IMG/VR virus record: IMGVR_UViG_3300026088_000014
Coordinates: 13,039-77,038 of that record
Source of the DNA: a virus
Lineage: Duplodnaviria; Caudoviricetes
Reading direction: 5' to 3' (one strand)
Length of the DNA stretch: 64,000 nucleotides
Shown: positions 7,156-39,843 of the stretch, in pieces
How positions within the stretch are numbered: the stretch's first letter is position 1
How the letters are laid out: every line of letters starts with the position of its first letter
Notes under the pieces: generated by a model
Told to the model about the DNA's origin: nothing
The model's database searches: none
The model's input: the letters and a program-made list of their open reading frames with translations, nothing else
Program-made: the position numbers and the translations under genes

Positions 7156-7698
7156 CTACTCGGAGAACAACACGTTTCCGGTGACGGTGGTCGTCAGCGT
7201 GCCGCGGAAGCGCAGCGCCAAGCCGGAGAATGTCGTGGCCGAAGATGTGGCCGGAGACACGATTTCCGATCCCGGAGCGGCGACCCAACGATACGAGGCG
7301 CGCTGGTTGACACCAACGTACCAAGGCTCGGCACCGACCGAGTAGCTGGCCGATGAGCCCTGCGAGGCGTTGATGGTGCAGAAGCACTGGAAGCCGGTAT
7401 CCGCCGGGTCCAGGGTGAATGCACTCGACGCGCTCGACAGCGTGCCGGTCCAGGTCAGCGTCGAACCGATCGTAGTGCGGATGATCGAGTATTCGACGTA
7501 AGAGTCCGCCGGGGTGCCGTTGGTGCCGACAAGCACGTCGTACCACTTGACACGCTTGAGGCCGTTGTTGGCCGGCGGGCTGACCAGTGCGCTGCCGCTT
7601 GACGGCTGCGTCATGATCGCCGGCTGATAAGATGTCGATGCGGTCGTTTGCGCAGAACCAAACGACAGGTTCGAGTTAGAAATTCCATAATTGGGCAT
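7156..7698 (-). CDS. Ser/Thr-rich putative virion protein
   Basis: 180 aa, about 29% S+T. Confidence 0.65.
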   Translation of the reverse strand: MPNYGISNSNLSFGSAQTTASTSYQPAIMTQPSSGSALVSPPANNGLKRVKWYDVLVGTNGTPADSYVEYSIIRTTIGSTLTWTGTLSSASSAFTLDPADTGFQCFCTINASQGSSASYSVGAEPWYVGVNQRASYRWVAAPGSEIVSPATSSATTFSGLALRFRGTLTTTVTGNVLFSE

Positions 7699-7707
7699 AG
7701 ATGGCTC

Positions 7708-8691
7708 CTATCCCTGTTTCTCTGGGTTGCGTGCCTTCGCCAGCAACTGGTCCAGATACCAAGTGCCGCCGTTATCTTGCGTGCCGAGATGAATTTCCGT
7801 GTAGTAGACCGTATCTTCCAGCGCACCTTGCAGGTAGCGAAGGTCGGCGGTCTTCGACGCAACCACGTTCTGTGCTTGCGCCAGTTCCTGATTACAGACG
7901 TTGATGCGGGATTGCAGCTCGGCACGACGCGCGAGCGTCTTTCTGCCGAATTGCGTAACATCAGAATATCCATACAGGCCAGGTGGCTGCATGATATCCG
8001 ACTCGGGTGGTGCCCAGCATTTGATGCCGCGCTTTGCAGCTTCGACGAACAGCGCCTGCGTTCCTTGCCGCTGCACCATGTATTCGTCGTGCGAGGCCAT
8101 ATCGATACCATAGAGGTTAATCTCTTTGGCACCCTGCATCATGGCAAAGCCAAGCATCCAAGCGAACGATGAGGTAAAGAAGTAGGGACCGAATTCCTTT
8201 ATGAGCTCGTCGCGCGGGAAGATCAGCGCATTCTTGACCTGCGACTGATCCTGCATATAGAGCGGGATCTTCAGCTCGCTAAGCCACTTCAGATATGGCT
8301 CGCCGTAGTGCTTACATTCCGGCCACAGCAGGTTGGCATGGATCTCAAACCACACGTCAGCGCGCGGCAGGTTATTCATGTTGCCGGGCGAGCAGGCCCA
8401 GATCTTCCAAGACGGGTCGTTGAACGGAGCCAGCAGACGCGATGACGGCGCAGTACCGATCAAGGCAACCTTGAGCGGAGCAGGCTCAGCCGCAGGGACA
8501 ACCGGCATTTGAAACGTCGGCCCTATTCCGTACATAGGCTGCGGCAGCGCCCCGCCAAGCTCGACAAACGGATTGGCTGTCGTCGGCTCATGCGGCGCAA
8601 CAATGTGTACCGGTGCATTGCCGGTATCTCCCTGCGGAGAAAGCTCCGGTTTCTTGTTCTGGTCGCCGAAGGTTGGCGTAATCAATGACAT
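7708..8691 (-). CDS. Putative glycosyltransferase, Maf/DUF115 or GT29 sialyltransferase-like
   Basis: KVALIGTAPS...IWACS...ADVWFEIH resembles sialylmotif-L/Maf; FTSSFAWMLGFAMMQGAKEINLYGIDM resembles sialylmotif-S/Maf. Confidence 0.6.
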   Translation of the reverse strand: MSLITPTFGDQNKKPELSPQGDTGNAPVHIVAPHEPTTANPFVELGGALPQPMYGIGPTFQMPVVPAAEPAPLKVALIGTAPSSRLLAPFNDPSWKIWACSPGNMNNLPRADVWFEIHANLLWPECKHYGEPYLKWLSELKIPLYMQDQSQVKNALIFPRDELIKEFGPYFFTSSFAWMLGFAMMQGAKEINLYGIDMASHDEYMVQRQGTQALFVEAAKRGIKCWAPPESDIMQPPGLYGYSDVTQFGRKTLARRAELQSRINVCNQELAQAQNVVASKTADLRYLQGALEDTVYYTEIHLGTQDNGGTWYLDQLLAKARNPEKQG

Positions 8692-8692
8692 C

Positions 8693-9079
8693 TCAACTTC
8701 CTATAATCTGCCCGGAGATCAGCGTGACAACCTGACCGACCGTGACCAGCGTACTGTTAAGTCCGTTGGCAATCGTGACGTTTGCCCCAGAAAGCGGAAT
8801 TCCAACGGTCAGGCCAGAAATCATCACAGCTCCTGTCGAATCTTGTATCCTAGCTCCGTCTGCATTTCCAGTTGCGTCCGCCGATATATCTAGCGCCGGC
8901 ACGGTGAACGTGAGTACGCCGGCTGCAGCGACGCCGCATGGCTTAGCAAGTGTAATGGTAGCAAGAGTGACCCCACCATTAAGGAGAAGCATAACTCCGT
9001 TACCAGGGCCTGCATCGATCGCAGTGATGACCCCATTAAGTCGGGCGGTGATGGCTGTTGTGCTGTAAACGATGGCCAC
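8693..9079 (-). CDS. Conserved small virion protein
   Basis: GTG start at 9079 after GGA; MAIVYSTTAITARL...GVLTF...DATGNADGARIQDS pattern seen in phage structural genes. Confidence 0.6.
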   Translation of the reverse strand: MAIVYSTTAITARLNGVITAIDAGPGNGVMLLLNGGVTLATITLAKPCGVAAAGVLTFTVPALDISADATGNADGARIQDSTGAVMISGLTVGIPLSGANVTIANGLNSTLVTVGQVVTLISGQIIGS

Positions 9080-9084
9080 ATTGA

Positions 9085-9807
9085 TTATCCTGTCTGCAGC
9101 ACAGACACACCCAGCTGCGAGGCGTTGGAGGACGATGAAATCAACGTCACGCGCCACGCCGAGATGGGCGAGGTAAAGTTGGCTGTAGTAACCGCATCGA
9201 TCGCGGTGGAGACAAAGGTCGATCCTGGGGTCTGCGAGATAAACGGGGTCGGATACCACGGCACGATCTGTGGATTGCTGCTCGATAAGAGCTTGTTCGG
9301 ACCCGGCACCGTCTGGGTGATATCCTCAAGGGTGCATTCAAAGTTGGCCGATGCAGTCCCGGTGGCGGTGAAGGTAAGCTGAACCGCCATGTCGAACGGA
9401 TTGGCCCACGAATTGGTGGTGATCCACGGGGTTCCTGCCCGTGAAGACGTGCCCATATTCATGCGCACGTTCAGCGACGAGCTGAAGGTCACCGAGGTAA
9501 CTGACTGAAAATCCTGTACCGTGGTGCGAATCGAGCCAGCCGCACTTGAGCCAAGAATTCTCTCGGTGACGGCATCGCCGCTATCGCTGACCCCGGTCAG
9601 TGTGATGATAAGCGAGTCGCTGGCTGCCGCTGAAGACCAGAAGATAATCCGGCGACCGGTATCCAGCAGCGAGGCAACCGCACCCGATGATGTGCCGATC
9701 TGTGCCGACGAGCCCGAGGTATAGAGGACGGTCTGCGACGAGAAAAAGCCCAGCATCCCGCTGGAGGATGTGGTGATCGACTTGTTGAGAAGGGTTGGTT
9801 GCGCCAT
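9085..9807 (-). CDS. Ser/Thr-rich virion structural protein
   Basis: 240 aa, 78 S+T (about 33%); motif ITLTGVSDSGDAVTE.I.G...TVQDFQSVTSV. Confidence 0.7.
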   Translation of the reverse strand: MAQPTLLNKSITTSSSGMLGFFSSQTVLYTSGSSAQIGTSSGAVASLLDTGRRIIFWSSAAASDSLIITLTGVSDSGDAVTERILGSSAAGSIRTTVQDFQSVTSVTFSSSLNVRMNMGTSSRAGTPWITTNSWANPFDMAVQLTFTATGTASANFECTLEDITQTVPGPNKLLSSSNPQIVPWYPTPFISQTPGSTFVSTAIDAVTTANFTSPISAWRVTLISSSSNASQLGVSVLQTG

Positions 9808-10288: not shown

Positions 10289-10627
10289 TTAGGCCGTGAC
10301 GGACTGAAGCGCTTTGAGGGTGAATGTGATCGGCGTGGCGTTGGTCGTTGAGTTAATCCTGACCCCGCCGAGCGGTGAGAGCACCGTCAACAGGTAGCCT
10401 GTGTCAAAAGCCGTATTCGACGAAGTGATACCGACCGCCGAGCTGATGACCGCCCATGTCAGGGTGGGGCCGCCAACGATGGTTGGGTCGTCGAGTGAGG
10501 CTTGAATGGTGAACGCGGCAACCGCCGAAGACGATGCCGTCAGCAGCAGCGTTGTATTCTTGGCTACCGGATTAAGGGCGATTCCGGCGCTGGTGCCTGC
10601 CGATGAAAGGGTTACGGATTGTGCCAT
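10289..10627 (-). CDS. Ser/Thr-rich small virion protein
   Basis: 112 aa, about 30% S+T; RBS AGGAG. Confidence 0.7.
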   Translation of the reverse strand: MAQSVTLSSAGTSAGIALNPVAKNTTLLLTASSSAVAAFTIQASLDDPTIVGGPTLTWAVISSAVGITSSNTAFDTGYLLTVLSPLGGVRINSTTNATPITFTLKALQSVTA

Positions 10628-14169: not shown

Positions 14170-14589
14170 CTAAAAGATTGAATTCGGGTCATCCACCTTC
14201 ATCATGATGCTGGCATCCCTCAGCAACCGGCAAGGAAATCCATTAACCATGAGGCTTCTGGCGTCGACCACGTTGTAGACGGCCCACTCCCCGACCTGCA
14301 CCTTGTCTGCATCGGCGAAATGGTATTCCGCGTCATCCTGAAAGGCAGCTGTGCCCCACTTGAGGACGAGGCCGACCTTGCCCTGCCAAACATCCTCTTC
14401 CTTGTTCGCATCGGGGCGAATGATGCCGCCCTTGGTCTTTTCCGGTCGCATGTAGGTGGCGACCAGAACTCGGTTTGAAAGGACGTAGTGGCCGGACAGA
14501 TCACCGACGAAATCGATGATCGCTTTCTTCGGGTCTTTCGCATTGGCAACAATGTCAATCGCCTTATGAGGTACTACAACACCCATCAC
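14170..14589 (-). CDS. groES: GroES/Cpn10-like co-chaperonin
   Basis: NRVLV...EKTKGGIIRPD mobile loop, GKVGLVLKWG, VQVGEW and RLLRDASI. Confidence 0.8.
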   Translation of the reverse strand: MMGVVVPHKAIDIVANAKDPKKAIIDFVGDLSGHYVLSNRVLVATYMRPEKTKGGIIRPDANKEEDVWQGKVGLVLKWGTAAFQDDAEYHFADADKVQVGEWAVYNVVDARSLMVNGFPCRLLRDASIMMKVDDPNSIF

Positions 14590-17957: not shown

Positions 17958-19532
17958 TTAGACCTGATACAATGGTGCGGTGTCCGATGGAGATCTATAC
18001 ATCATATCGTCCTCTCTTGCGATGGCGCTCTCTTCTCGCCTGAGTGCGAATCCGGTGTCGCGCAGATAACGAACTGCCATCGACACGCAGTCCACCAAGT
18101 CGTCATGCGCGCCGCGCGGAAACACAGACACTTGGTTAATCACCATGTCGGCCCATGAGCGATCCGGCGCATAAACCATGTTGTCGGCGAAGATGTGCTG
18201 AATGGAGTGAACACGGGCAACCTTGTCGCCGTAGCGCTTGGGGTCGACCGTCTCAATACCGAACTTGGACTGACCCAGGAGTCGATAGAGCTCTTGGGCG
18301 ACCGACAGTCCGCTGGCCTTGCCTTCGATCAACAGCCGGTCAATGGCATAACGCGGGTGGGACGCCGGGGCCGGGCTGACCACGCAGGTATTGATGACCT
18401 TCTGCACCAGATCGTAGAACTGCAGCCGCTCCTGCCATGCGTACATCAGCATCAGCTTGGGGTTGCCGGCCTCGTCGCGAAATACGCCCCATATGGTTAA
18501 GGCACTGGGATCGTTCTCCTTTTTCTCGGTATAGGCGGTATCCAAGGAAGCCAGGATATATTCGAAGTCGGGAAACTTGTCGGGCTTCCATTCCTGCCAA
18601 TAGGCATCTTTGATGATCGCCCCACCACGCGGCGCGGGCATCTGCTGGTACTGCCCGGCCCAGGCGTAAGGACCCTTATCCCTTTCTAATTCCTGGGATA
18701 TTTCCTCCGAAAAGCGCTCTTCCCATGCCAGCTCGCCATCCTCTTCCCGCCAGTCAGTCCAGGTCTTGGTCCCGTAAGTTGTGGTGCAATGGCGGGCGGA
18801 ATCATACCGCATGGGTATCATAAGGTGTGTGTAGCCCATTTCTCGCGTAATAGCTGTACCGCTGACATCTTCCTCATGCGTCCGCTGCTGGATCACGACG
18901 ATGGCTGACTCGGCTTGGTTGTTGAGGCGATCAGGGATAATTTCGGTGAACCACATATTGGTGGTTGCTCTGATCGTTTCGGATTCCATTTCCATAGGGT
19001 TATTGGGGTCGTCGATGATGACCCGATCGGCTCGCTCCCCGGTTCCGATGCCGGAAACCGAGGTTGCCAGCTTCCACCCGGTACAATCGTTGGCGAACTT
19101 GACCTTAGTGAATTGCTCATTGGAGATGCCGAATCTGTTGCCCCACAGCGCTCGATAGCGATCGGAGATAACCACGTTGCGGCAACGCATATTATCACGC
19201 TCGGTCAGGTGGTTAGAGTAGGCGGCACACATATAGCGCAGCCACGGGCGGCCCTTAGGACCCCACTCCCAGGCCGGCCAGAACACATCCGTCATCAGCG
19301 ACTTGGTGAACCCCGGCGGCACGTTGATGAGCAGCCGGCGAATCTGGCCATCGGTTACAGCCTGTAGGTGTTCGGCTACAGCCTCAATGGCATACCCCTT
19401 GATAAAGGGGATGGCTGGCTCGACCACCGGCCACACATATTTCGCAAAATTGAGCAAACTGTCTTCGTAAGGCTGGCGTATCTTCACCAGTTTTAGGCCG
19501 CGAGCAGCGACATCAAGCAGTTCTGCGGTCAT
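17958..19532 (-). CDS. terL: Terminase large subunit
   Basis: LLINVPPGFTKS (Walker A), VIIDDP (Walker B), C-terminal nuclease SLDTA...IEGKASG...HDDLVD. Confidence 0.95.
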   Translation of the reverse strand: MTAELLDVAARGLKLVKIRQPYEDSLLNFAKYVWPVVEPAIPFIKGYAIEAVAEHLQAVTDGQIRRLLINVPPGFTKSLMTDVFWPAWEWGPKGRPWLRYMCAAYSNHLTERDNMRCRNVVISDRYRALWGNRFGISNEQFTKVKFANDCTGWKLATSVSGIGTGERADRVIIDDPNNPMEMESETIRATTNMWFTEIIPDRLNNQAESAIVVIQQRTHEEDVSGTAITREMGYTHLMIPMRYDSARHCTTTYGTKTWTDWREEDGELAWEERFSEEISQELERDKGPYAWAGQYQQMPAPRGGAIIKDAYWQEWKPDKFPDFEYILASLDTAYTEKKENDPSALTIWGVFRDEAGNPKLMLMYAWQERLQFYDLVQKVINTCVVSPAPASHPRYAIDRLLIEGKASGLSVAQELYRLLGQSKFGIETVDPKRYGDKVARVHSIQHIFADNMVYAPDRSWADMVINQVSVFPRGAHDDLVDCVSMAVRYLRDTGFALRREESAIAREDDMMYRSPSDTAPLYQV

Positions 19533-19611
19533 TAAAATACCTGTGTACAAAAGTGAAAAAATTTCTTGGCGACGCCATCAGCACCCCTTAGGCATGGAGC
19601 GGGAGGATCAC

Positions 19612-19797
19612 ATGACGCGCGATCAACTCATCCTGCTGTCCACCAGAATATATGACGAGGGCAAAAAGCGCGAGGGCTTAGGCGGCTACAGCGCCGACGC
19701 CGACTCACTGCTGTTCCTCCACTCGGCTCTGTACAACGTCGTTCAGCACCTCATCGAGAAAGAAAAGAAGCCAAGAAAGCGCAAGAAGAAGCGATGA
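19612..19797 (+). CDS. Hypothetical protein, first gene of the sugar operon
   Basis: GGAGG RBS; stop overlaps the next start. Confidence 0.6.
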   Translation: MTRDQLILLSTRIYDEGKKREGLGGYSADADSLLFLHSALYNVVQHLIEKEKKPRKRKKKR

Positions 19798-20291
19798 GCA
19801 TCCTCGTAGCCCACCGAATTCTTCTCACCAAGCACACCGAGCCAAAGCACCTCAAGACCATGGTGCGCTGGCTCAATGACCCAGATGTCGTCCAATTCTC
19901 CGAACAAAGACACCACCGCCACGACGAAGAAAGCCAAGCCCACTACATTACCGACGGATGCTCAATCTTCCGCGAGATCCATACCGAGAAGCGGTTCATC
20001 GGCACCATTACTGCAGATATTGATCGCGCTAACTCAGTTGCCAATGTCGGCATCCTCATCGGCGAAAAGAAGGAATGGGGCAAAGGCTACGGCACGGAAG
20101 CGTGGAAAACCTTCTGCGACCACCTTCTCACCCATGGCATCCGCAAGATCGAGGCAGGCACCATGGCGTGCAACTACGGAATGCTGAACATCTTCCGGCG
20201 CACTGGAATGCATCACGAAGGGCAGCGCTACAACCACTTCCTGCTCGGCAATGAACTCTTTGACCTGCTGCAATGGGCGAGGTTCGCATGA
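19794..20291 (+). CDS. GNAT (RimJ/RimL) N-acetyltransferase, PseH-like
   Basis: WLNDPDVVQFSEQR, FIGTI, VGILIGEKKEWGKGYGTEAW and GMHHEG. Confidence 0.85.
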   Translation: MSILVAHRILLTKHTEPKHLKTMVRWLNDPDVVQFSEQRHHRHDEESQAHYITDGCSIFREIHTEKRFIGTITADIDRANSVANVGILIGEKKEWGKGYGTEAWKTFCDHLLTHGIRKIEAGTMACNYGMLNIFRRTGMHHEGQRYNHFLLGNELFDLLQWARFA

Positions 20292-21085
20292 AGGTGCAGT
20301 TAGTGGGCAGCAACGAAGAAGCCATAAAGGAATTCTGGGATGGTCAGGCCAAGCAGCATGGCGCATCCGACAAGGCCACCGCACCAGACTCGGCCTACCG
20401 GCAGCTGGAGATCGACGCCATCATCCCACACATCGAGGGGCGCTGGATTTGCGATGTCGGCTGCGGCAACGGCTATTCGACCTTCAAGTTCAAGGATGCT
20501 TATCCCCACAAGGCATTCCTCGGCGTCGACTACTCACAGGCGATGGTCACGGCAGCCAATGTTGCGGCCATCGTCATACACTCGGACGTATCGTTCGTTA
20601 CCTGCGACGTGCGGAAGCTGTCGCGGCTGAAAGTCGCCAAGTTCCACACCATCATCTCCGAGCGCTGCCTGATTAACCTGCAGACGTGGGAAGAACAGCA
20701 GCAGGCCATTCTGGAAATGAAGCAATGCCTGCTACCGGAGGGCAAGCTGATTCTGGTAGAAAACTTTATCGATGGGCTGAATAACTTAAACAAATTACGC
20801 GAGCAATTTGCCTTACAGCAAATCCTTGTCCGCTGGCATAACCGCTACCTGCATTCCGCTGAATTTCACAAATTCATTGAAAAAGAATTTTATATCAAAC
20901 ACCAAGAAAACATCGGCAACCTCTACTACATCATATCGCGTGTGGTTTATGCCAAACTCTGTCAACTAGATGGCACAGAACCGCAATATGGTGCCGAGAT
21001 AAATCGCATCGCCGCCAAGCTGCCGCCACTCGGCGTCTACAACTATTCCCCAAACATGATGTATGTGCTGGAGGCCAAGGGGTGA
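20288..21085 (+). CDS. Class I SAM-dependent methyltransferase
   Basis: ICDVGCGNG, GVDYSQAMV and FHTIISERCLINL. Confidence 0.9.
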   Translation: MKVQLVGSNEEAIKEFWDGQAKQHGASDKATAPDSAYRQLEIDAIIPHIEGRWICDVGCGNGYSTFKFKDAYPHKAFLGVDYSQAMVTAANVAAIVIHSDVSFVTCDVRKLSRLKVAKFHTIISERCLINLQTWEEQQQAILEMKQCLLPEGKLILVENFIDGLNNLNKLREQFALQQILVRWHNRYLHSAEFHKFIEKEFYIKHQENIGNLYYIISRVVYAKLCQLDGTEPQYGAEINRIAAKLPPLGVYNYSPNMMYVLEAKG

Positions 21086-21681
21086 AACAGGTCCGCGCCT
21101 TTATGCAAAGCGAAGGGGCGGCATGGCTTGAGCGCAATGAAAGCAAGCTGCCGCCGGTCATTGATCCTGTCATTGAAGCCATCAAGTCCGCCGACATCTC
21201 CCCGCACCATACGGATGTCATAGAGGTTGGCTGCGCTAATGGCTGGCGCTTGGAACGGATGAAGCGGCTGTACAACACTCGCGGCATCGGCGTTGACCCC
21301 GCGGCCCCGCGCAACGTGCCGCATCTGTTTCAAGGCGGTGCCGATAGTTTACCGGCAGCAACCGATGAGTACGATTTTGTCATCTACGGGTTCTGCCTCT
21401 ATCTGGTCGATCGCGAAGACTTGTTCAAGGTAGCCGCCGAAGGCGATCGCGTACTGCGCAACTTCGGTCACATCGTCATCTACGACTTCCTGCCAGATTA
21501 CCCGCACAAGGTGCCGTACAAGCATCTCGACGGACTCTTCAGCTACAAGATGGATTACGCCAACCTGTGGCTCGGCAGTCCGGCCTACAGCGTCGTGCAT
21601 CGTCAGTTATGGCCGGAACAAGGGGAAGCGGTCACCATTCTGCAGAAAGACATCAACAGAGGATGGCCGCTCGATGAGTGA
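21082..21681 (+). CDS. Class I SAM-dependent methyltransferase, type associated with sugar-biosynthesis clusters
   Basis: VIEVGCANG, GVDP and YDFVIYGFCLYLVDR...DRVL. Confidence 0.85.
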   Translation: MKQVRAFMQSEGAAWLERNESKLPPVIDPVIEAIKSADISPHHTDVIEVGCANGWRLERMKRLYNTRGIGVDPAAPRNVPHLFQGGADSLPAATDEYDFVIYGFCLYLVDREDLFKVAAEGDRVLRNFGHIVIYDFLPDYPHKVPYKHLDGLFSYKMDYANLWLGSPAYSVVHRQLWPEQGEAVTILQKDINRGWPLDE

Positions 21682-21805
21682 CATGAAGGAATTGCTTAGC
21701 CTGCTTGCTCTGTCTGGGTTCATCGGAAATATCCATGCACAGTTTGGCTGGGCGTTTTTAATGGCTGGTAGCCTAACGATGCTTTTCATTGGATATTTCA
21801 AATGA
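21674..21805 (+). CDS. Small hydrophobic membrane peptide (43 aa)
   Basis: Hand-translated; fills the gap and its stop overlaps the next ATG. Confidence 0.45.
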   Translation: MSDMKELLSLLALSGFIGNIHAQFGWAFLMAGSLTMLFIGYFK

Positions 21806-22647
21806 GCAAGACAATCGGCGTTATCGGCATTGGCTCTATTGGCGAAAGACATGCCACAAATCTAATTAAACTGCGCAAGGCCATCACCGTTCTTACACAC
21901 GACCCAAAGAGCGGAGACGAGGAAGATAACTTAAGGCACCTCATTTATAGGAGCGATGCGATTGTCATCGCCAGCCCAACGCCGACGCACCTCGATTACA
22001 TCTTCAAGGTCTCGCACGCATCAAAGCCGATGTTCGTGGAGAAGCCGGTTGCCGACAAGTATGACGAGATCTGCAACGCAGCAACGATGGTCGGCTACAA
22101 CCTGCGCTTCCATGCCTGCGTCAAGAAGGCGAAGGAGTGGATGCAATCCGACGTGATTGGAGAACCCGTCTGGGCCAACTTCACCGTCGCCCAGTTCAAC
22201 GACAAGTTAGACTACCTGCGCGATGGCGTCATCCTCAACTGGTCACATGAGATCGATCTGGCGCTCTATCTGCTTGGCGACGCATCGGTAAGAAGCTGTG
22301 TTAGCGACACACCGATGCTGGCTGACATTATCCTTATGCATGAAAATGGTTGCCATTCGGTTGTTCACCTTGACTACCTCACACGACCGGAAGTTCGGCA
22401 AACAATCATTTCTGGACTAGATGCAACAATCATTCTCGATCTAGTCAACCGACAGGCATGGCTGCGGGATGCGGATGGATCAATCTTGGATCATTTGGAT
22501 GCAGACGACTCTTGGGATGAGAACTATGTGGAAGAGATGGCGGCTTTTCTGGCTCGCGTTGATGGCCAGGAAACGATCGGCTGCACCGGGGAAGAGGGGT
22601 TAAGGGTTCTGGAATTATGTCTCAAGGCAATAAAGTTGTCGCAATAG
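21802..22647 (+). CDS. Gfo/Idh/MocA family NAD-dependent oxidoreductase
   Basis: IGIGSIG Rossmann motif, IASPTPTH, FVEKP, VGYNLRFH and SHEIDL. Confidence 0.9.
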   Translation: MSKTIGVIGIGSIGERHATNLIKLRKAITVLTHDPKSGDEEDNLRHLIYRSDAIVIASPTPTHLDYIFKVSHASKPMFVEKPVADKYDEICNAATMVGYNLRFHACVKKAKEWMQSDVIGEPVWANFTVAQFNDKLDYLRDGVILNWSHEIDLALYLLGDASVRSCVSDTPMLADIILMHENGCHSVVHLDYLTRPEVRQTIISGLDATIILDLVNRQAWLRDADGSILDHLDADDSWDENYVEEMAAFLARVDGQETIGCTGEEGLRVLELCLKAIKLSQ

Positions 22648-24641
22648 CCCAGGCGCGCATGGGCAGTACGCGATTCCCCGGCAAGGTCATGACCGACCTT
22701 GAGGGGATTCCGGTGCTGCAATGGACGGTCAACGCGCTGTGGGACTCGCACGGGCTTGACGATGTTGTCATCGCTACCTCGACGCTGCCGGCGGACGACA
22801 TTATTGCCCACTACTGTTCAATGCACGGCATCAACTGTTTCCGCGGCAGCGAAACGGATGTGCTCGACCGCTTCTATCAGTGTGCCAAAGAATACAAGGC
22901 CGACATCATCCTGCGGCTGACCTGCGACTGCCCATTCCTTGACCCATCCGTCATCAGCGAAGTCATCAGGCTAAGGGAGATGACCAATGCAGAATATGCA
23001 ACAAATACAGATCCTCCTACTTATCCTGATGGTCTGGATGTTGAGTGTTTTACTTTTGCTGCTCTTGAGTGTGCTCACAAAGAAGCAATCCGCAGCAGCG
23101 ACCGCGATTGCGTTACTCGTTTTATTGTACGCAACCGGCATCGCTTTCCTGCTGCCAACCTGAGGTGTCCACTTCCGGGATTAGAGAAGGAGCGCTGGGT
23201 TCTCGACACCAAGGATGACTTTAGCTTCTGTCTGGAGATTGCCAAGCGCATTGGCACCAGCACATCCTATCTGGAGATTCTCGATATTCTTGCTACCGAG
23301 CCGGAGCTGCGACAGCTTAATCCGGGAATCCGCAACGAGCGCTTCTATGAGGGAATATCCGATGAGCAACTACCCACACGAACATTTACACGATCACAGC
23401 GACTATACGAGCGAGCATCCCAAACAATTCCATTTGCCGCACAAACCTTCTCCAAGTCACACCTCGTTTTCCCACCGGGAAGAAGTCCGCTGTTTGTGTC
23501 TCACGGTGACGGGGCTTATGTTTATGACGTTGATGGCAATGATTATGTTGATCTCGTTAGCGCCCTACTTCCTGTCGTCCTGGGTTACCGCGATCCTGAC
23601 GTTGACGGTGCTGTCCGCCGCCAGCTGGATAGCGGTATTTCATTCTCCTTGGCGACGGAAATGGAAGCGCAACTTGCCGAGACACTCTGCCGGCTCATTC
23701 CGTGTGCCGAGAAAGTCAAGTTCGGAAAATCAGGAACCGATGTAACAACCGCAGCGGTGAGGCTGGCCCGTGCTTATACCGGTAGAGATCACGTCTTGGT
23801 CGGTGGTTATCATGGGTGGGCTGATTGGAGCATGTCTGTTACTGATCGCAATCTGGGAATCCCGGAAGATGTAAGAAAATTAAGTCGCCGGATTCCTGAC
23901 GGCTTTTCCTCTGTCAATGATATTGGTTTGCTGCCAAGTCAGGTAGCCGCCATTATCATTGAGCCGAATGGCGACCCTGAGTATTTGCGGTGGCTGCGTG
24001 ACTACTGTACGGAACGCGGCATCGTTCTAATCTTCGACGAGATAATCACCGGGTTTCGCTACGATCTCGGTGGTGCTCAGAAACTGTTTGGTGTTACGCC
24101 AGACCTTGCGTGTTTCGGCAAGAGCATGGGGAATGGCATGCCAATCTCGGCTGTCGTTGGACGTGCAGAGCTGATGAGTAAATGTGAGCCACCAGGTAAC
24201 ATTTTCTACTCGGGCACATTTTTCGGTGAGACACTGGGGATCGCTGCAGCTCTCGCAACGATTGACAAGATGGAGCGGGACGATGTTATCGAACACCTGT
24301 GGTCGTTTGGCACGCGGCTGAGGGCTCATATCAATACTATCGTTACTCAGTTGGGGTTGCATGATGTCGTGCGCCTCAGCGGTGAGGCTCCACTCATCAA
24401 AATAGATTTCCTCGGCGAGCACAAGGAAAAGTTACGTTCGCTGTTCATCGAGCAGATGGCGCAGAACGGCGTGCTAATCATCGGCTCCAACAATCTATCG
24501 TTCGCGCACAAGGACCCGCAGCTCAAGCGCATTGTAACAGCCTACGGGGCAACACTGATCGCGATCAGGGTGGCGATTGACAGCGGCTCCATCAGTCAGG
24601 TCGAGGCTTCAGCTGGACTGCCGATACGAGCCAGCGCATGA
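22617..24641 (+). CDS. Fusion: SpsF/PseF-like cytidylyltransferase plus class III PLP aminotransferase (glutamate-semialdehyde aminomutase-like)
   Basis: N-terminal IAQARMGSTRFPGKVM...RGSETDVLDRF...RLTCDCP; C-terminal DVDGNDYVD, FGKSGTD, FDEIITGFR and FGKSMGNG. Confidence 0.9.
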   Translation: MSQGNKVVAIAQARMGSTRFPGKVMTDLEGIPVLQWTVNALWDSHGLDDVVIATSTLPADDIIAHYCSMHGINCFRGSETDVLDRFYQCAKEYKADIILRLTCDCPFLDPSVISEVIRLREMTNAEYATNTDPPTYPDGLDVECFTFAALECAHKEAIRSSDRDCVTRFIVRNRHRFPAANLRCPLPGLEKERWVLDTKDDFSFCLEIAKRIGTSTSYLEILDILATEPELRQLNPGIRNERFYEGISDEQLPTRTFTRSQRLYERASQTIPFAAQTFSKSHLVFPPGRSPLFVSHGDGAYVYDVDGNDYVDLVSALLPVVLGYRDPDVDGAVRRQLDSGISFSLATEMEAQLAETLCRLIPCAEKVKFGKSGTDVTTAAVRLARAYTGRDHVLVGGYHGWADWSMSVTDRNLGIPEDVRKLSRRIPDGFSSVNDIGLLPSQVAAIIIEPNGDPEYLRWLRDYCTERGIVLIFDEIITGFRYDLGGAQKLFGVTPDLACFGKSMGNGMPISAVVGRAELMSKCEPPGNIFYSGTFFGETLGIAAALATIDKMERDDVIEHLWSFGTRLRAHINTIVTQLGLHDVVRLSGEAPLIKIDFLGEHKEKLRSLFIEQMAQNGVLIIGSNNLSFAHKDPQLKRIVTAYGATLIAIRVAIDSGSISQVEASAGLPIRASA

Positions 24642-25555
24642 ATATTCTTGTTACAGGCGGCACAGGCTCGTTCGGGCAGGCTTTCGTCAAGCGTCTGCTG
24701 AACAGCATCGATGTAACAAGAATCGTCGTCTACTCGCGAGGCGAACATGCGCAAGAAGAGATGGAGCATCGCTACCGGGATGATCGTCTCCGCTTCTTTA
24801 TTGGCGACGTTCGCGACATTAGCCGTCTTGAGCTGGCACTTCATGGTATCGACACGGTTGTTCACGCCGCTGCATTAAAGATCGTGCCGATCGCTGAGTA
24901 CAATCCGACCGAGTGCGTCGCGACCAACGTGCTGGGGGCGCAGAACATAGTAAAGGCAGCACTGCATACAGGAGTGAAACGTGTTGTTGGACTCTCCACT
25001 GACAAGGCTGTTAATCCGATCAACCTCTATGGAGCCACCAAGCTGGCCGCCGAGAAGATTTTTGTCGCGGCTAATGCTCTGGCTGCGGGTCGGACTGCTT
25101 TTAGCGTGGTGCGCTATGGGAACGTTGCTGGCAGCCGTGGCTCTGTTGTTCCTCTTTTTAAGCGGTTAGCTGCGGAGGGCAAGCCGCTGCCGCTGACGCA
25201 TCCAGACATGACCCGGTTCTGGATCACAATGGATCAGGCAATCGATCTGGTCATGTATGCAATTTATCACTCGCATGCGCGCGAGATTCTCGTTCCCAAG
25301 ATTCCATCGATTAAGATTACCGATCTGATTGCCGCGATGTCGAACCTGCCACCAACGCTGGTCGGCATCCGTCCCGGTGAGAAGATTCATGAAACACTGA
25401 TTACCGCCGACGAGGCGAGAGTGACCGCGGATATGGTCAACTTTTACCTTATCAATGCACCGGAGAAGTACCCCAAGGTGGAGCAGGGGTTTTGTTACAC
25501 CAGCGACACTAACACCGAATGGCTCACCGTAGAACAGTTGAGGGCAATGACATGA
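24638..25555 (+). CDS. pseB: UDP-N-acetylglucosamine 4,6-dehydratase (inverting)
   Basis: VTGGTGSFG, HAAALKIVPIAEYNP, LSTDKAVNPINLYGATKL, RYGNVAGSRGSV and GIRPGEKIHE. Confidence 0.93.
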   Translation: MNILVTGGTGSFGQAFVKRLLNSIDVTRIVVYSRGEHAQEEMEHRYRDDRLRFFIGDVRDISRLELALHGIDTVVHAAALKIVPIAEYNPTECVATNVLGAQNIVKAALHTGVKRVVGLSTDKAVNPINLYGATKLAAEKIFVAANALAAGRTAFSVVRYGNVAGSRGSVVPLFKRLAAEGKPLPLTHPDMTRFWITMDQAIDLVMYAIYHSHAREILVPKIPSIKITDLIAAMSNLPPTLVGIRPGEKIHETLITADEARVTADMVNFYLINAPEKYPKVEQGFCYTSDTNTEWLTVEQLRAMT

Positions 25556-25749
25556 GAGGACCTGGGAGACCGCTGAAAGACTTGCCGAAGAAGACGATCA
25601 TGAATCACATCATTCGGCTGCGCGGTCGCAACAACCGTCACTTTGGAGCCTTGTGGGCCGAGGGATTGAAGACCGCCAAGGGCCGCAAGGCGTGGAAGGC
25701 CATACAAGAAAACGACACACAGATAACAAAATGGATGAGCCGCATTTAG
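25552..25749 (+). CDS. Small helical protein within the sugar cluster
   Basis: ATGA overlap with pseB; I..LRGRNN..F...I.END..I pattern. Confidence 0.6.
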   Translation: MRGPGRPLKDLPKKTIMNHIIRLRGRNNRHFGALWAEGLKTAKGRKAWKAIQENDTQITKWMSRI

Positions 25750-26843
25750 AGCGCATGCCGCGCTTCTCGACGATCGCCTTTGCCGAGAAGGTTGCCGTAT
25801 CCGACACGCTGCGCCGGCCGCTCAGCGGCTATCTCGGCGGCGTTGACAAGTCGGAGGGCTATTACGTCAACCGACTTATCGACAAGTGGTGCGAGGAATT
25901 CCGCTGCAAATATGCGATCCCCTGCAACTCTGCTACAAGCGGACTGCTCGCCGCGTGCATGGCGATCGGCATCAAGCCGGGAGATACGGTATGGGTCTCC
26001 GCGATGGGTATGTCTGCTACGGCTGCCTGTGCGAAGGTGTTAGGAGCACATATTGTATTCATCGATGTCGAGACGATCAGGTTCTCGATGAATATGAATA
26101 TGATGCCGAGGGATGTGCCAAGATGCGTTATTATCACCAGCTTGTTTGGCCATCCTGCCTACCTTTCGAGCATTCGGTCCTGGTGCGACTCCAATGACGT
26201 ATGGATGATCGAAGATGCCGCACAAGCACCATTCGCCATGGAGGCGGGCAAATACGCGGGCACCATCGGACACATCGGCGTCTTCTCATTCAACGTCCAC
26301 AAGCACATCCAGGCCGGGGAGGGTGGGATCTGTGTTACCGACGATCATGCACTCGCAGAGAAGCTGGCTGGTGCTATTAACCACGGTGAGCTTGCTCATC
26401 GCAGCGCTGGCCTTAATCTTCGGATGACCGAGCCGACCGCGGCGATTGCCTGTGCCCAGCTCGCCCGCGCGTCGCATATCATCGAGAGCCGCCGGCACAT
26501 TGCCTATGAACTGACCGAGATGGTTGCCGGCATCCCATGGATCACGGCGCAGACCGATGATGTCGACTGCAAGCACGTCTATTATCGCTGGGTAGCGCGG
26601 GTCGATCCCGTCAAGCGGCACAGCTTCGTCGGCAACCTGAACGCGCGCGGATTCCCCATGGTGTCGGGCTACTCACCGACACTCAACCGCATCTTCAATG
26701 GCTACACCTTTGAATGTCATGTGGCACAGGACATGGAGGATCGCGAGCTTATCAGCTTCGGTGTCTGCGAGTGGGAGCCGAAGACCCGGCACTTCAACCA
26801 GATGCGCGAGATCATCAAGCGAGTCGCGGAGGGGCTGACATGA
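25731..26843 (+). CDS. pseC: DegT/DnrJ/EryC1/StrS aminotransferase (PseC-like); start may be 25755
   Basis: NSATSGL, MIEDAAQA, FSFNVHKHIQAGEGG and LNLRMTE. Confidence 0.85.
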   Translation: MDEPHLERMPRFSTIAFAEKVAVSDTLRRPLSGYLGGVDKSEGYYVNRLIDKWCEEFRCKYAIPCNSATSGLLAACMAIGIKPGDTVWVSAMGMSATAACAKVLGAHIVFIDVETIRFSMNMNMMPRDVPRCVIITSLFGHPAYLSSIRSWCDSNDVWMIEDAAQAPFAMEAGKYAGTIGHIGVFSFNVHKHIQAGEGGICVTDDHALAEKLAGAINHGELAHRSAGLNLRMTEPTAAIACAQLARASHIIESRRHIAYELTEMVAGIPWITAQTDDVDCKHVYYRWVARVDPVKRHSFVGNLNARGFPMVSGYSPTLNRIFNGYTFECHVAQDMEDRELISFGVCEWEPKTRHFNQMREIIKRVAEGLT

Positions 26844-27841
26844 AGATCGCCAACCGACGCATCGGGCTGATCGAGCCGCCCTTTGTGGTGGCGGAAATTT
26901 CCGGCAATCACTCGGGCTCGCTGGAGTTTGCCAAGCGGCTGGTCAAGGCAGCAAAGCGGGCCGGCGCGCATGCAGTAAAGACGCAGTGCTATGAGCCCGA
27001 CACCATCACGCTGAACATCAGCAAGCCTGACTTCATCGTGCAGGACGGCCTCTGGCGCGGGCGCACGCTGTACGAGCTCTACCAGAAGGCGCACACCCCC
27101 TTTGCCTGGCACAAGGATCTGTTCCATGTCGCCCACCATGAGGACATTGCGATCTTTTCTTCTGTGTTCGACTTCAGTTCGGTCGATTTCCTGGAGAAGC
27201 TGGGTTGCCCAGCCTACAAGATTGCTTCCTTTGAGATCGTCGACCTGCCGCTCATCGAGCACGCCGCATCGACCGGCAAGCCGCTCATCATCTCGACCGG
27301 CGGGGCAACCGATGCGGAAATCCTAGAGGCCAACGAGGCAGCCGGCGGCAAGGCGGCCTTCCTGCATTGTCCGGTGGGCTACCCGGGAAACGAGAAGACG
27401 GCTGACCTGCGCCGCATCAGCATGATTAGCGCGATGTTCGGCTTCGAGAACCCGGTGGGCATTTCCGATCATACCAGGGGGGATATCGTGCCGGTGGCAG
27501 CGACGGCCATAGGGGCGACCATCATCGAGAAGCATCTCAAGCTCGACGCCAACAGCAAGTCGGAGGATGCGGCCTTCTCCCTGGTGCCTGGCGAGTTCGC
27601 GCACATGGTCAAGGCGGTAGAGCTGACCTATCAGGCGCTGCAGAGTCAGCCGCACTCGACGGCCAACCGGCAGTTCCAGCGTTCACTATATGCGGTGGCT
27701 GACATCAAGAAGGGTGAGACCTATAGCCTTGAGAACATCCGTTCGATCCGTCCCGGCTATGGTCTGCCGCCGAAGATGCTGGAGGATCTGCTCGGGCGCA
27801 AGGCGACACGCGACTGGCGCAAGGGCGACCCGCTGTCATGA
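26840..27841 (+). CDS. pseI: Pseudaminic acid synthase (NeuB/PseI family, C-terminal SAF domain)
   Basis: PFVVAEISGNHSG, KTQCYEPDTIT, AHTPFAWH, YKIASFE, GISDHT, IIEKH and RSIRPGYGLPP. Confidence 0.93.
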   Translation: MKIANRRIGLIEPPFVVAEISGNHSGSLEFAKRLVKAAKRAGAHAVKTQCYEPDTITLNISKPDFIVQDGLWRGRTLYELYQKAHTPFAWHKDLFHVAHHEDIAIFSSVFDFSSVDFLEKLGCPAYKIASFEIVDLPLIEHAASTGKPLIISTGGATDAEILEANEAAGGKAAFLHCPVGYPGNEKTADLRRISMISAMFGFENPVGISDHTRGDIVPVAATAIGATIIEKHLKLDANSKSEDAAFSLVPGEFAHMVKAVELTYQALQSQPHSTANRQFQRSLYAVADIKKGETYSLENIRSIRPGYGLPPKMLEDLLGRKATRDWRKGDPLS

Positions 27842-28155
27842 CCGACCAGCAGATCATCATTCCCAAGCCGGAGCAGGAGGTTCGTCCTAGCTGGCGCGAG
27901 GAGTGGTTCAAGAAGATGGAGGATACCTGGAATCCTCCCTTCGAGATTCCCAATATCGAGTTTCATTATTACAAGGAAGACTTCATCAACCGGCACCTGA
28001 GCGTGCGGGCGGCACGCGACTGGAGGAACCATCCGTTCTGGTTCTACGTCTGCGTGCTGTTCTTATTGGGACAAATGGCGGCGCTGGGACTTGGGGTCTC
28101 ATTCAGGATACTCAAGCCGTTCATCCCGGCGCTTGATTTGCCGAATCTGAGCTAA
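27838..28155 (+). CDS. Hypothetical protein with C-terminal TM segment
   Basis: ATGA overlap with pseI; hydrophobic C-terminus. Confidence 0.55.
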   Translation: MTDQQIIIPKPEQEVRPSWREEWFKKMEDTWNPPFEIPNIEFHYYKEDFINRHLSVRAARDWRNHPFWFYVCVLFLLGQMAALGLGVSFRILKPFIPALDLPNLS

Positions 28156-39766: not shown

Positions 39767-39843
39767 GAGCAGGTGTCCAGAATGGTTACGGATGTGTACT
39801 GCAAATCCGCAATATGTGGGTTCGACTCCCATCCTGCTCTCCA
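39767..39843 (+). tRNA. tRNA-Cys(GCA)
   Basis: Acceptor GAGCAGG/CCTGCTC, U73 discriminator, encoded CCA, loop CTGCAAA, GGGTTCGACTCCC; anticodon stem has a G-U pair and a U-C mismatch. Confidence 0.85.

Follow-up and report, generated by a model that had tools for sequence, protein, structure and literature searches.

Nonulosonic acids are sugars of bacterial and animal cell surfaces, where they govern how immune systems, lectins and phages recognise the cell. In this work, we focus on an operon that would supply an activated sugar of this family and that is carried by a phage. The operon occupies positions 19794-27841 (+ strand) of a 64,000-nucleotide stretch of viral DNA (Duplodnaviria; Caudoviricetes), which we call the window and to which all coordinates refer unless another record is named. 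The window comprises bases 13039-77038 of the 77,038-bp virus record IMGVR_UViG_3300026088_000014, which is rated 100% complete by CheckV. In what follows, G000 is the genome under study, G001-G003 are three complete relatives and L-numbers designate further loci or records. An earlier note, made by a model from the letters of the window, had proposed that the phage makes its own activated nonulosonate and uses it, together with the gene at 7708-8691, either on its virions or on the host surface. We lean slightly towards the explanation that the phage makes a CMP-activated, pseudaminic-type nonulosonate in infection and that the 7708-8691 protein O-glycosylates the phage's own particle proteins with it.

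The systems described so far that come closest to this operon are the following. In Aeromonas, the group I flagellin glycosylation islands are organised as pseB-pseC-[aldo/keto reductase]-pseF-[class III aminotransferase]-(pseG)-(pseH)-pseI; they also carry methyltransferases and a Maf transferase, and their subgroups ID and IE are devoid of pseG (PMC7874193). The lipopolysaccharide (LPS) locus of Legionella pneumophila Sg6 contains the series GNAT-PseG-class III aminotransferase-cytidylyltransferase (PMC3694923). In a Moritella cluster, an SpsF-type cytidylyltransferase is fused to a reductase and coupled with a dehydrogenase (PMC7371886). An SpsF-type cytidylyltransferase-reductase fusion accompanied by a dehydrogenase is also found in Acinetobacter baumannii prophages, where this pair, EpaA/EpaB, was shown to convert pseudaminic acid (Pse) to its 8-epimer (PMC12053666).

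Gene content of the operon

The operon is real, yet it is no textbook Pse pathway. Ten + strand open reading frames (ORFs) are present in 19543-28155, and the eight of them that received a Pfam or NCBIfam assignment span 19794-27841, precisely where the earlier note had seen a coupled cluster of eight genes. Most of the junctions are stop/start overlaps (-4, -19, -4, -31, -4 and -4 nt), which indicates tight translational coupling, and the scans for promoters and terminators across the operon remained at chance level.

Two of the eight enzymes are identified at the level of their specific models. PseB, the inverting UDP-GlcNAc 4,6-dehydratase (24638-25555, +; Polysacc_synt_2 1.6e-95), aligns over its full length with TIGR03589 at 426.8 bits for a cut-off of 407.75. 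PseI, the pseudaminic acid synthase (26840-27841, +), reaches 394.9 bits with TIGR03586 for a cut-off of 340.25, while it scores 238.8 bits with the NeuB/NnaB model, which is below the cut-off of that model (399.65). The names pseB and pseI, both given in the note, can thus be retained. The PseI ORF was listed from 26714, and its likeliest start is the ATG at 26840, which has a GGAGG ribosome-binding site and forms an ATGA overlap with the stop codon of the preceding gene.

The third element is a fusion protein of 674 aa (22617-24641, +; CTP_transf_3 1.2e-28, Aminotran_3 1.7e-51), in which residues ~1-235 constitute an SpsF/KdsB-type cytidylyltransferase, with 6oew as its nearest solved relative, and residues ~255-674 a HemL-like class-III aminotransferase dependent on pyridoxal phosphate (PLP). 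Its motifs are intact: RMGSTRFPGK forms the P-loop, FGKSMGNG contains the PLP lysine, and FDEIITGFR is the class-III motif. Since five bacterial genomes that bear the same module lack a true PseF, the SpsF-type cytidylyltransferase is probably the activating enzyme. Judging from these sequence assignments, the presence of PseB, PseI and a cytidylyltransferase supports the view that the signature steps of a pseudaminic-type nonulosonate pathway are encoded in the phage.

The five other genes would prepare or tailor the sugar. Just upstream of the fusion is the gene of a Gfo/Idh/MocA NAD(P)-dependent oxidoreductase (GFO; 21802-22647, +; GFO_IDH_MocA 4e-9), for which the best NCBIfam matches, both below cut-off, are inositol 2-dehydrogenase (2.7e-20) and UDP-GlcNAc 3-dehydrogenase (8e-20). 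Its N-terminus has a GxGxxG motif, and the Rossmann motifs are intact in GFO as well as in PseB. This oxidoreductase is found in every related phage locus, as against 6 of the 80 cellular loci. A DegT/DnrJ/EryC1 sugar aminotransferase (25653-26843, +; DegT 2.1e-53), the true start of which is probably at 25731 or 25755, lies between PseB and PseI and is a candidate for the PseC step; Helicobacter pylori PseC (2fn6) is a distant match to it in the PDB (3e-11). At the beginning of the operon, a GNAT N-acetyltransferase (19794-20291, +; Acetyltransf_3 1.8e-15), present in almost all related loci, is a candidate for a PseH-like N-acetylation step or for the capping of an extra amine. It is followed by two methyltransferases dependent on S-adenosylmethionine (SAM). 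The first one, MT1 (20273-21085, +; class I; Methyltransf_25 6e-14), occupies a variable tailoring slot, as L009, L010 and L015 are the only related loci that share it with the window, and it is replaced by a formyltransferase in other relatives. The second one, the small MT2 (21082-21681, +; Methyltransf_11 6e-6, 27.3 bits for a cut-off of 21.2), is nearly universal in the clade (12 of the 14 related loci), and a sequence search of the PDB gave no match for it. Each of the components that the note had listed at this level, i.e. the two methyltransferases, the oxidoreductase and the cytidylyltransferase-aminotransferase fusion, is confirmed by a Pfam match.

A candidate transferase among the particle genes

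The gene at 7708-8691 (- strand) is located in the virion gene block and encodes a protein of 327 aa, which the fold of its model designates as a possible cut-down Maf/GT42-fold protein, or "mini-Maf". It matches nothing in Pfam, PHROG or NCBIfam, and none of its 831 close homologues is named. An AlphaFold2 model computed from 34 sequences has a mean pLDDT of 77 and a confident core at residues 71-236, preceded by a disordered N-terminus of 70 residues and completed by a long C-terminal helix. The core resembles the Maf of Magnetospirillum magneticum (5mu5; VIA-align Z 10.9, with an rmsd of 2.9 over 152 aa) and two enzymes of Campylobacter jejuni, Cst-I (2p56; VIA-align Z 10.5) and CstII (1ro7; Foldseek E 9.5e-5, probability 1.0). 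At its first strand-helix turn, the protein has IGTAPSS, a motif of the Gly-x-x-Pro-Ser type that we take to correspond to the Maf/Cst motif. A weak lead also came from the ESM Atlas, in the form of a viral cluster in which 16% of the members carry PF01973 (score 0.80).

The other argument comes from domain fusions. When 1.84 billion representative proteins were searched with a profile, 4,014 clusters of the 7708-8691 family were recovered, mostly of 225-330 aa, and two metagenomic members, P0384 and P0390, are natural fusions of an SpsF-type cytidylyltransferase with a 7708-8691-type domain. P0384 (492 aa) is represented by two near-identical sequences on separate contigs; its N-terminal cytidylyltransferase shares 42% identity with that of the operon (E 6e-43), and its C-terminal domain shares 35% identity with the 7708-8691 protein (E 2e-37). 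This fusion ties the gene of the particle module to the sugar operon independently of the fold, so that the involvement of 7708-8691, already suggested in the note, is strengthened from two sides.

Two further members of the family can be mentioned. P0377 (504 aa, metagenomic) combines a weak N-terminal match to PhyH-like dioxygenases (E 0.0014) with a C-terminal 7708-8691-type domain. The only homologue in a GenBank phage is L107:5902-6705 of Microcystis phage Mvi-Yong1342-1 (PP496355.1), with 34% identity over the core; it is annotated as a "type 11 methyltransferase" and sits just upstream of the small terminase gene, in a phage that has no NeuB-family gene.

The gene is conserved in the three complete relatives (53-62% identity), where it is flanked, as here, on one side by the gene of a PHROG "virion structural protein" and on the other by that of a conserved Ser/Thr-rich protein. 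The latter (7156-7698, -), directly downstream of the transferase gene, is a candidate acceptor with 29% Ser+Thr, against 20-25% in its G001-G003 orthologues, and it belongs to virus-only clusters of the ESM Atlas. The virion structural protein (8693-9259, -; phrog_3758 4.9e-7), directly upstream, has orthologues of only 128-130 aa (20-26% Ser+Thr), and its start is therefore probably near 9080; as listed, its ORF overlaps by 175 nt that of the next protein (9085-9807, -). This one is another Ser/Thr-rich candidate acceptor of the late module (33%), with no homologue in G001-G003 and no PHROG match. Just after the major head gene, a small protein (10289-10627, -) with 30% Ser+Thr (27% in its orthologues) is a candidate decoration protein or acceptor. 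In total, five late-module proteins have 24-33% Ser+Thr for a genome mean of 13.3% (sd 6.3), and the three of these five for which orthologues exist are Ser/Thr-rich in the relatives too. The major head protein is 82-86% conserved and displays no such enrichment. This composition is no more than suggestive of a role of the Ser/Thr-rich late proteins as glycan acceptors.

The phage and its relatives

A scan of IMG/VR with the fusion protein retrieved 14 loci, 13 of which are distinct. Wherever the contig reaches, the large terminase gene (TerL) is followed in divergent orientation by GNAT, (MT1), MT2, GFO, fusion, PseB, DegT and PseI, with 35-65% amino acid identity. The related records include three complete genomes of 65-76 kb, of which two have direct terminal repeats. 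The note had raised the possibility that the cluster is an assembly chimera or a flank of host DNA; we reject both, as the synteny is kept in 13 distinct viral contigs, among them the three complete relatives. The operon is in addition bordered by TerL, an SU10-type portal, a major head protein and tail proteins, which identifies the window as phage DNA. TerL (17958-19550, -; phrog_38 9.3e-82) is divergent from the sugar operon, and beyond it come the genes of the portal, of a GroES-like protein, of the major head protein and of the tail. The portal (SU10_portal 1.5e-13) and two proteins with an SU10_adaptor match (2.5e-22) are those of an SU10/Kuravirus-like podophage, a classification that applies to these modules only, and TerL is at most 44% identical to that of any GenBank phage. 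No integrase, no further glycosyltransferase and no DNA-modification enzyme was detected among the proteins of the genome. Lysogenic conversion was considered and rejected, since no integrase is seen in the genome.

The protein database contains hundreds of homologues of the fusion, at 57-68% identity, many of them on contigs of 60-77 kb. In the GenBank phage collection, the fusion is missing from every record, and a NeuB-family gene, itself distant, occurs in only two. The cellular counterparts are fused or adjacent genes for an SpsF-type cytidylyltransferase and a class-III aminotransferase, which recur beside PseB, DegT and PseI genes. Such loci occur among candidate-phyla bacteria, Acidobacteriota, Spirochaetota and other groups, and the identity over the whole fusion does not exceed 37%. 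For the rhizobial K-antigen locus (rkp-3) evoked in the note, nothing was found that speaks for or against a link to the operon; the cellular homologues of the fusion are that distant and are spread over many phyla. A quick maximum-likelihood tree built on the aminotransferase domain groups the 13 phage copies in a single clade (SH-aLRT 100), and their nearest cellular neighbours come from several phyla, so the tree contains no host signal. The profile searches and the phylogeny that the note had called for thus confirmed PseB and PseI and delimited a phage clade, but gave no indication of the host.

Inside the clade, the identities of the fusion and of TerL are weakly correlated (Spearman rho 0.35, p 0.0035). 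The PseB proteins of the window and of the L002-L015 orthologues are of two types, with ~45% identity between types and 55-85% within; these types ignore the TerL grouping, which indicates that members of the clade have exchanged parts of the module. In two relatives (L010:11887-12438 and L015:9495-10001), the operon is interrupted by an HNH homing-endonuclease gene, in one case between fusion and PseB and in the other between GFO and fusion, and two HNH_3 proteins are encoded in the window's own genome.

Two small ORFs adjoin the eight assigned genes. The leader ORF (19543-19797, +; 84 aa as listed) overlaps the start of GNAT by 4 nt, and its likelier start is the ATG at 19612, behind a GGAGG site; it has no match in Pfam or NCBIfam, and weak homologues are found at the same position in L005, L006, L011 and L012. 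At the other end, an ORF of 105 aa (27838-28155, +) overlaps the stop of PseI by 4 nt and has neither a family match in Pfam or NCBIfam nor a homologue in the related loci. Elsewhere in the genome, the GroES/Cpn10-like co-chaperonin lies within the head-morphogenesis block (14170-14589, -; phrog_3188 8e-8, Cpn10 7.2e-6), a single tRNA-Cys (GCA) gene is found at 39767-39843, and a protein of 925 aa encoded upstream of the window (G000:C1:30-2807, -) has an InPase domain (PF18823, inorganic pyrophosphatase-like; 8e-38) near its N-terminus.

A predicted route to the sugar

If the enzymes act as the membership of their families suggests, PseB would convert UDP-GlcNAc into a 4-keto-6-deoxy sugar, the DegT enzyme could aminate this sugar at C4 and the GNAT could acetylate the new amine. 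The hydrolysis that PseG would perform may be supplied by the host or by an unrecognised enzyme. PseI would then combine the resulting 6-deoxy-hexose with phosphoenolpyruvate (PEP) to form the nine-carbon acid, and the cytidylyltransferase domain would activate this acid with CMP.

GFO and the fused aminotransferase come in addition to this scheme. By analogy with the published loci, we propose that GFO oxidises a surviving hydroxyl to a ketone, at C8, at C4 or on the N-acyl chain, and that the fused aminotransferase then makes an extra amine at this place. The position derived from C3 of the hexose becomes the ring oxygen, and is therefore not available for oxidation. The extra amine would be capped by a methyl group here, through MT1 and MT2, and by a formyl or acetyl group in the relatives. 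Finally, the Maf/sialyltransferase-fold protein encoded at 7708-8691 would use the activated sugar, and would most likely O-glycosylate the Ser/Thr-rich particle proteins encoded around it.

The capping enzymes vary across the relatives (formyltransferase, MT1, second GNAT), which suggests that the sugar carries an extra free amine. The formyltransferase occurs in four distinct related loci (five listed). A sugar-type formyltransferase (PF00551) takes the place of MT1 at L004:19-591, L005:8541-9146, L012:8536-9150 and L014:7321-7902, and a second GNAT gene is found between PseB and DegT at L008:8904-9359. Instead of Pse5Ac7Ac, the pathway probably yields a derivative that is further aminated and N-capped. 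The claim that the phage makes its own activated sugar is consequently to be modulated: PseB, PseI and the cytidylyltransferase are indeed encoded, but PseG is missing and the product is probably not plain Pse5Ac7Ac. In its most specific form, our proposal is that GFO and the fused aminotransferase give a triamino nonulosonate, with caps depending on the lineage, which the Maf-fold enzyme puts on the phage's own particle proteins; this complete version is a tentative one, and we regard it as possible rather than probable. We found no description of a triamino nonulosonate in the full-text literature that was searched.

Weighing the explanation against its alternatives

Several observations weigh against the proposed glycosylation of the particle by a phage-made nonulosonate, and they concern the pathway, the transferase and the acceptors. 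In the pathway, the DegT enzyme has 146 bits with the PseC model (TIGR03588; cut-off 423.5) and 140.5 bits with that of LegC (cut-off 420), two about equal scores that establish membership of the DegT family alone. The PseH model (TIGR03585) is unmatched in G000-G002 and yields 22.7 bits for the G003 orthologue (cut-off 93.1), and the cytidylyltransferase domain yields 21.8 bits with the PseF model (TIGR03584; cut-off 205.7). The PseG model (TIGR03590) matched nothing, either in the 77-kb genome (at E<=1) or in the three complete relatives (at E<=0.1); all four complete genomes thus lack PseG, and the pathway may be unable to run on phage enzymes alone. The PseB-C-H-G-I-F set to which the note had assimilated the cluster is hence incomplete, with PseG lacking and the equivalog models of PseH, PseC and PseF out of reach. 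The labels "pseC-like" and "pseH-like" hold for the DegT and GNAT families and fail for the more specific models. Moreover, the solved structure that MT1 matches best in the PDB belongs to a protein lysine methyltransferase (1.8e-6), and the methyltransferases may therefore act on a protein, not on the sugar.

As for the transferase, an MptE-type HPPK pyrophosphokinase reaches Z 9.8 with the core of the 7708-8691 model, which is 1.1 below Maf, and thiamine pyrophosphokinases reach Z 8.2. Because the pyrophosphokinase score is so close behind that of Maf, the fold alone does not fix the activity. PF01973 (Maf/MptE-like) has no match at E<=1 in the G000-G003 proteins and none in ten distant members of the family; PF06002 (GT42 CST-I) has none at E<=1 in G000-G003, but its control matched nowhere either; and the 7708-8691 profile found nothing among the PDB sequences. 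The assignment of this protein as a candidate transferase is based on a modelled fold and on one fusion family. No membership of Maf or CST-I at the sequence level emerged from Pfam, PHROGs, NCBIfam, PF01973 or the PDB profile, nor from PF06002 with its silent control. Concerning the acceptors, the Ser/Thr enrichment of the whole late module is not significant (Mann-Whitney p 0.28) and involves five proteins only, and a high Ser/Thr content is in any case common in the fibre and decoration proteins of phages.

The alternative that survives best keeps the sugar and changes its destination. The nonulosonate would be placed on the flagellin, pili, S-layer, LPS or capsule of the host, by the phage transferase or by the host's own, so as to mask the receptor against superinfection or to keep the progeny from being trapped on debris. 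There are precedents, since the characterised Maf, FlmG and Cst enzymes are all reported to act on bacterial surface molecules (PMC7874193; PMC7591256), and the prophage proteins EpaA and EpaB alter a capsule sugar of A. baumannii (PMC12053666). A host equipped with its own Pse pathway would also be in keeping with the absence of PseG. On the other side, the transferase gene is within the virion block, away from the early genes, and this place is kept in the relatives; no integrase or lysogeny gene is seen, and the terminal repeats of the relatives are typical of lytic packaging. In addition, the 327-aa transferase does not have the extra flagellin-binding domains of a full-length Maf (the 5mu5 chain has 632 residues). 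We consider this explanation unlikely, although it deserves to be kept in mind before all other alternatives.

A smaller probability still goes to the hypothesis that the operon is a set of auxiliary metabolic genes boosting the flux of a host Pse pathway, and that 7708-8691 is unrelated to it, being for instance pyrophosphokinase-like or structural. A pathway that is incomplete without PseG fits with this, and so do the fold that 7708-8691 has in common with HPPK and the thiamine pyrophosphokinases, and the 11 kb that separate this gene from the start of the operon. On the other hand, P0384-type fusions to the same type of cytidylyltransferase tie the 7708-8691 domain to CMP-sugar chemistry, and the GenBank phages without the operon are also without a 7708-8691 homologue, with one exception. 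It would moreover be unexpected for a simple booster that the fusion, GFO and the variable formyl, methyl and acetyl caps be conserved and diversifying in phages.

That the 7708-8691 protein is itself the equivalent of PseG, a nucleotide-sugar hydrolase with water as its acceptor, in which case host enzymes would set the final acceptor, seems to us quite improbable. PseG is precisely a hydrolase with a glycosyltransferase fold, it is absent from the whole clade, and a fusion with the cytidylyltransferase is also compatible with two steps of one pathway. Nevertheless, the 7708-8691 protein has the fold of CMP-dependent transferases and not that of the UDP-sugar-binding GT-B enzymes, and a biosynthetic enzyme would be expected inside the coupled operon and not in the virion block. 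A decoration of the phage DNA as a hypermodification against restriction can practically be set aside, because, although phage glycosyltransferases are reportedly known to hypermodify DNA with diverse glycans (Pyle et al. 2024), 72 further proteins were found to include neither a DNA polymerase of the phage's own nor a DNA glycosyltransferase or a thymidylate-synthase-like hydroxymethylase, and we know of no precedent for a nonulosonate on DNA.

Comparison with known systems

Compared with its published description, the Aeromonas group I type of island is recognised in the phage operon by its gene content: the two have in common pseB, pseC, an oxidoreductase, a cytidylyltransferase, a class-III aminotransferase, pseI, methyltransferases and a Maf transferase (PMC7874193), the pseC and Maf counterparts of the phage being those discussed above as candidates. 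They differ in that the cytidylyltransferase and the aminotransferase of the phage are one polypeptide, and in that its oxidoreductase belongs to Gfo/Idh/MocA and is not an aldo/keto reductase. Furthermore, the phage transferase has 327 aa and no PF01973 sequence match, and the gene set is viral and comes without flagellin. The enzyme set is, in short, the phage version, with a new fusion, of a type of bacterial island whose product is itself uncharacterised. The lineage could for this reason help to clarify the aminotransferase-oxidoreductase pair that recurs in the glycan loci of Aeromonas, Legionella and candidate phyla.

With the PseB-C-H-G-I-F pathway of Campylobacter and Helicobacter, the operon shares PseB and PseI at the equivalog level, and DegT, GNAT and CTP_transf_3 proteins in the other roles. 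Unlike this canonical pathway, the phage adds an oxidoreductase, a class-III aminotransferase and two methyltransferases, it has no PseG, and the PseC, PseH and PseF models are not reached. The EpaA/EpaB pair is likewise phage-borne and directed to Pse, and consists of a separate dehydrogenase and of a protein that joins a tailoring enzyme to an SpsF-type CTP_transf_3 domain (PMC12053666). The arrangement in our phage is of the EpaA type, with CTP_transf_3 and Aminotran_3 in 674 aa and the GFO gene overlapping the start of the fusion. The chemistry is another one: EpaA has an aldo-keto reductase that gives the 8-epimer, and the Pse is made by the host (PMC12053666), whereas here the fusion partner is an aminotransferase, the predicted product is an amine, and PseB, DegT and PseI are encoded by the phage as well. 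The lineage can be seen as a compact and naturally fused set of enzymes for making new CMP-nonulosonates.

On the side of the transferase, the central nucleotide-sugar-binding fold is common to the 7708-8691 model, Maf (5mu5) and the GT42 enzymes Cst-I and CstII, but the phage protein has no detectable sequence similarity with them and does not have the flanking domains of Maf. Its family, which counts ~4,000 sequence clusters and has no Pfam model, represents viral "dark matter" with a testable function.

In the full-text literature that was searched, we found no phage described with both a nonulosonate donor pathway and a matching transferase. If true, the most specific form of our proposal, with a triamino sugar, would amount to the first sialic-acid-like glycosylation of a bacterial virus, with donor and transferase genes all encoded by the virus. 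More generally, this phage lineage, which is large and widespread, appears to produce an activated nonulosonate itself and to encode a fitting transferase beside its particle genes; confirmation of this would extend nonulosonate chemistry to virus particles and offer a new explanation for phage stability, adhesion or evasion of host recognition. The nearest parallel for a glycosylated particle is that of the mycobacteriophages, whose glycosyltransferases are said to modify the phage's own capsid and tail proteins (Freeman et al. are reported to have described this in 2023), reportedly with sugar nucleotides of the host and ordinary hexose-type glycans. In comparison with this virion glycosylation, the donor pathway would here also be phage-encoded, and the sugar would be a nonulosonate.

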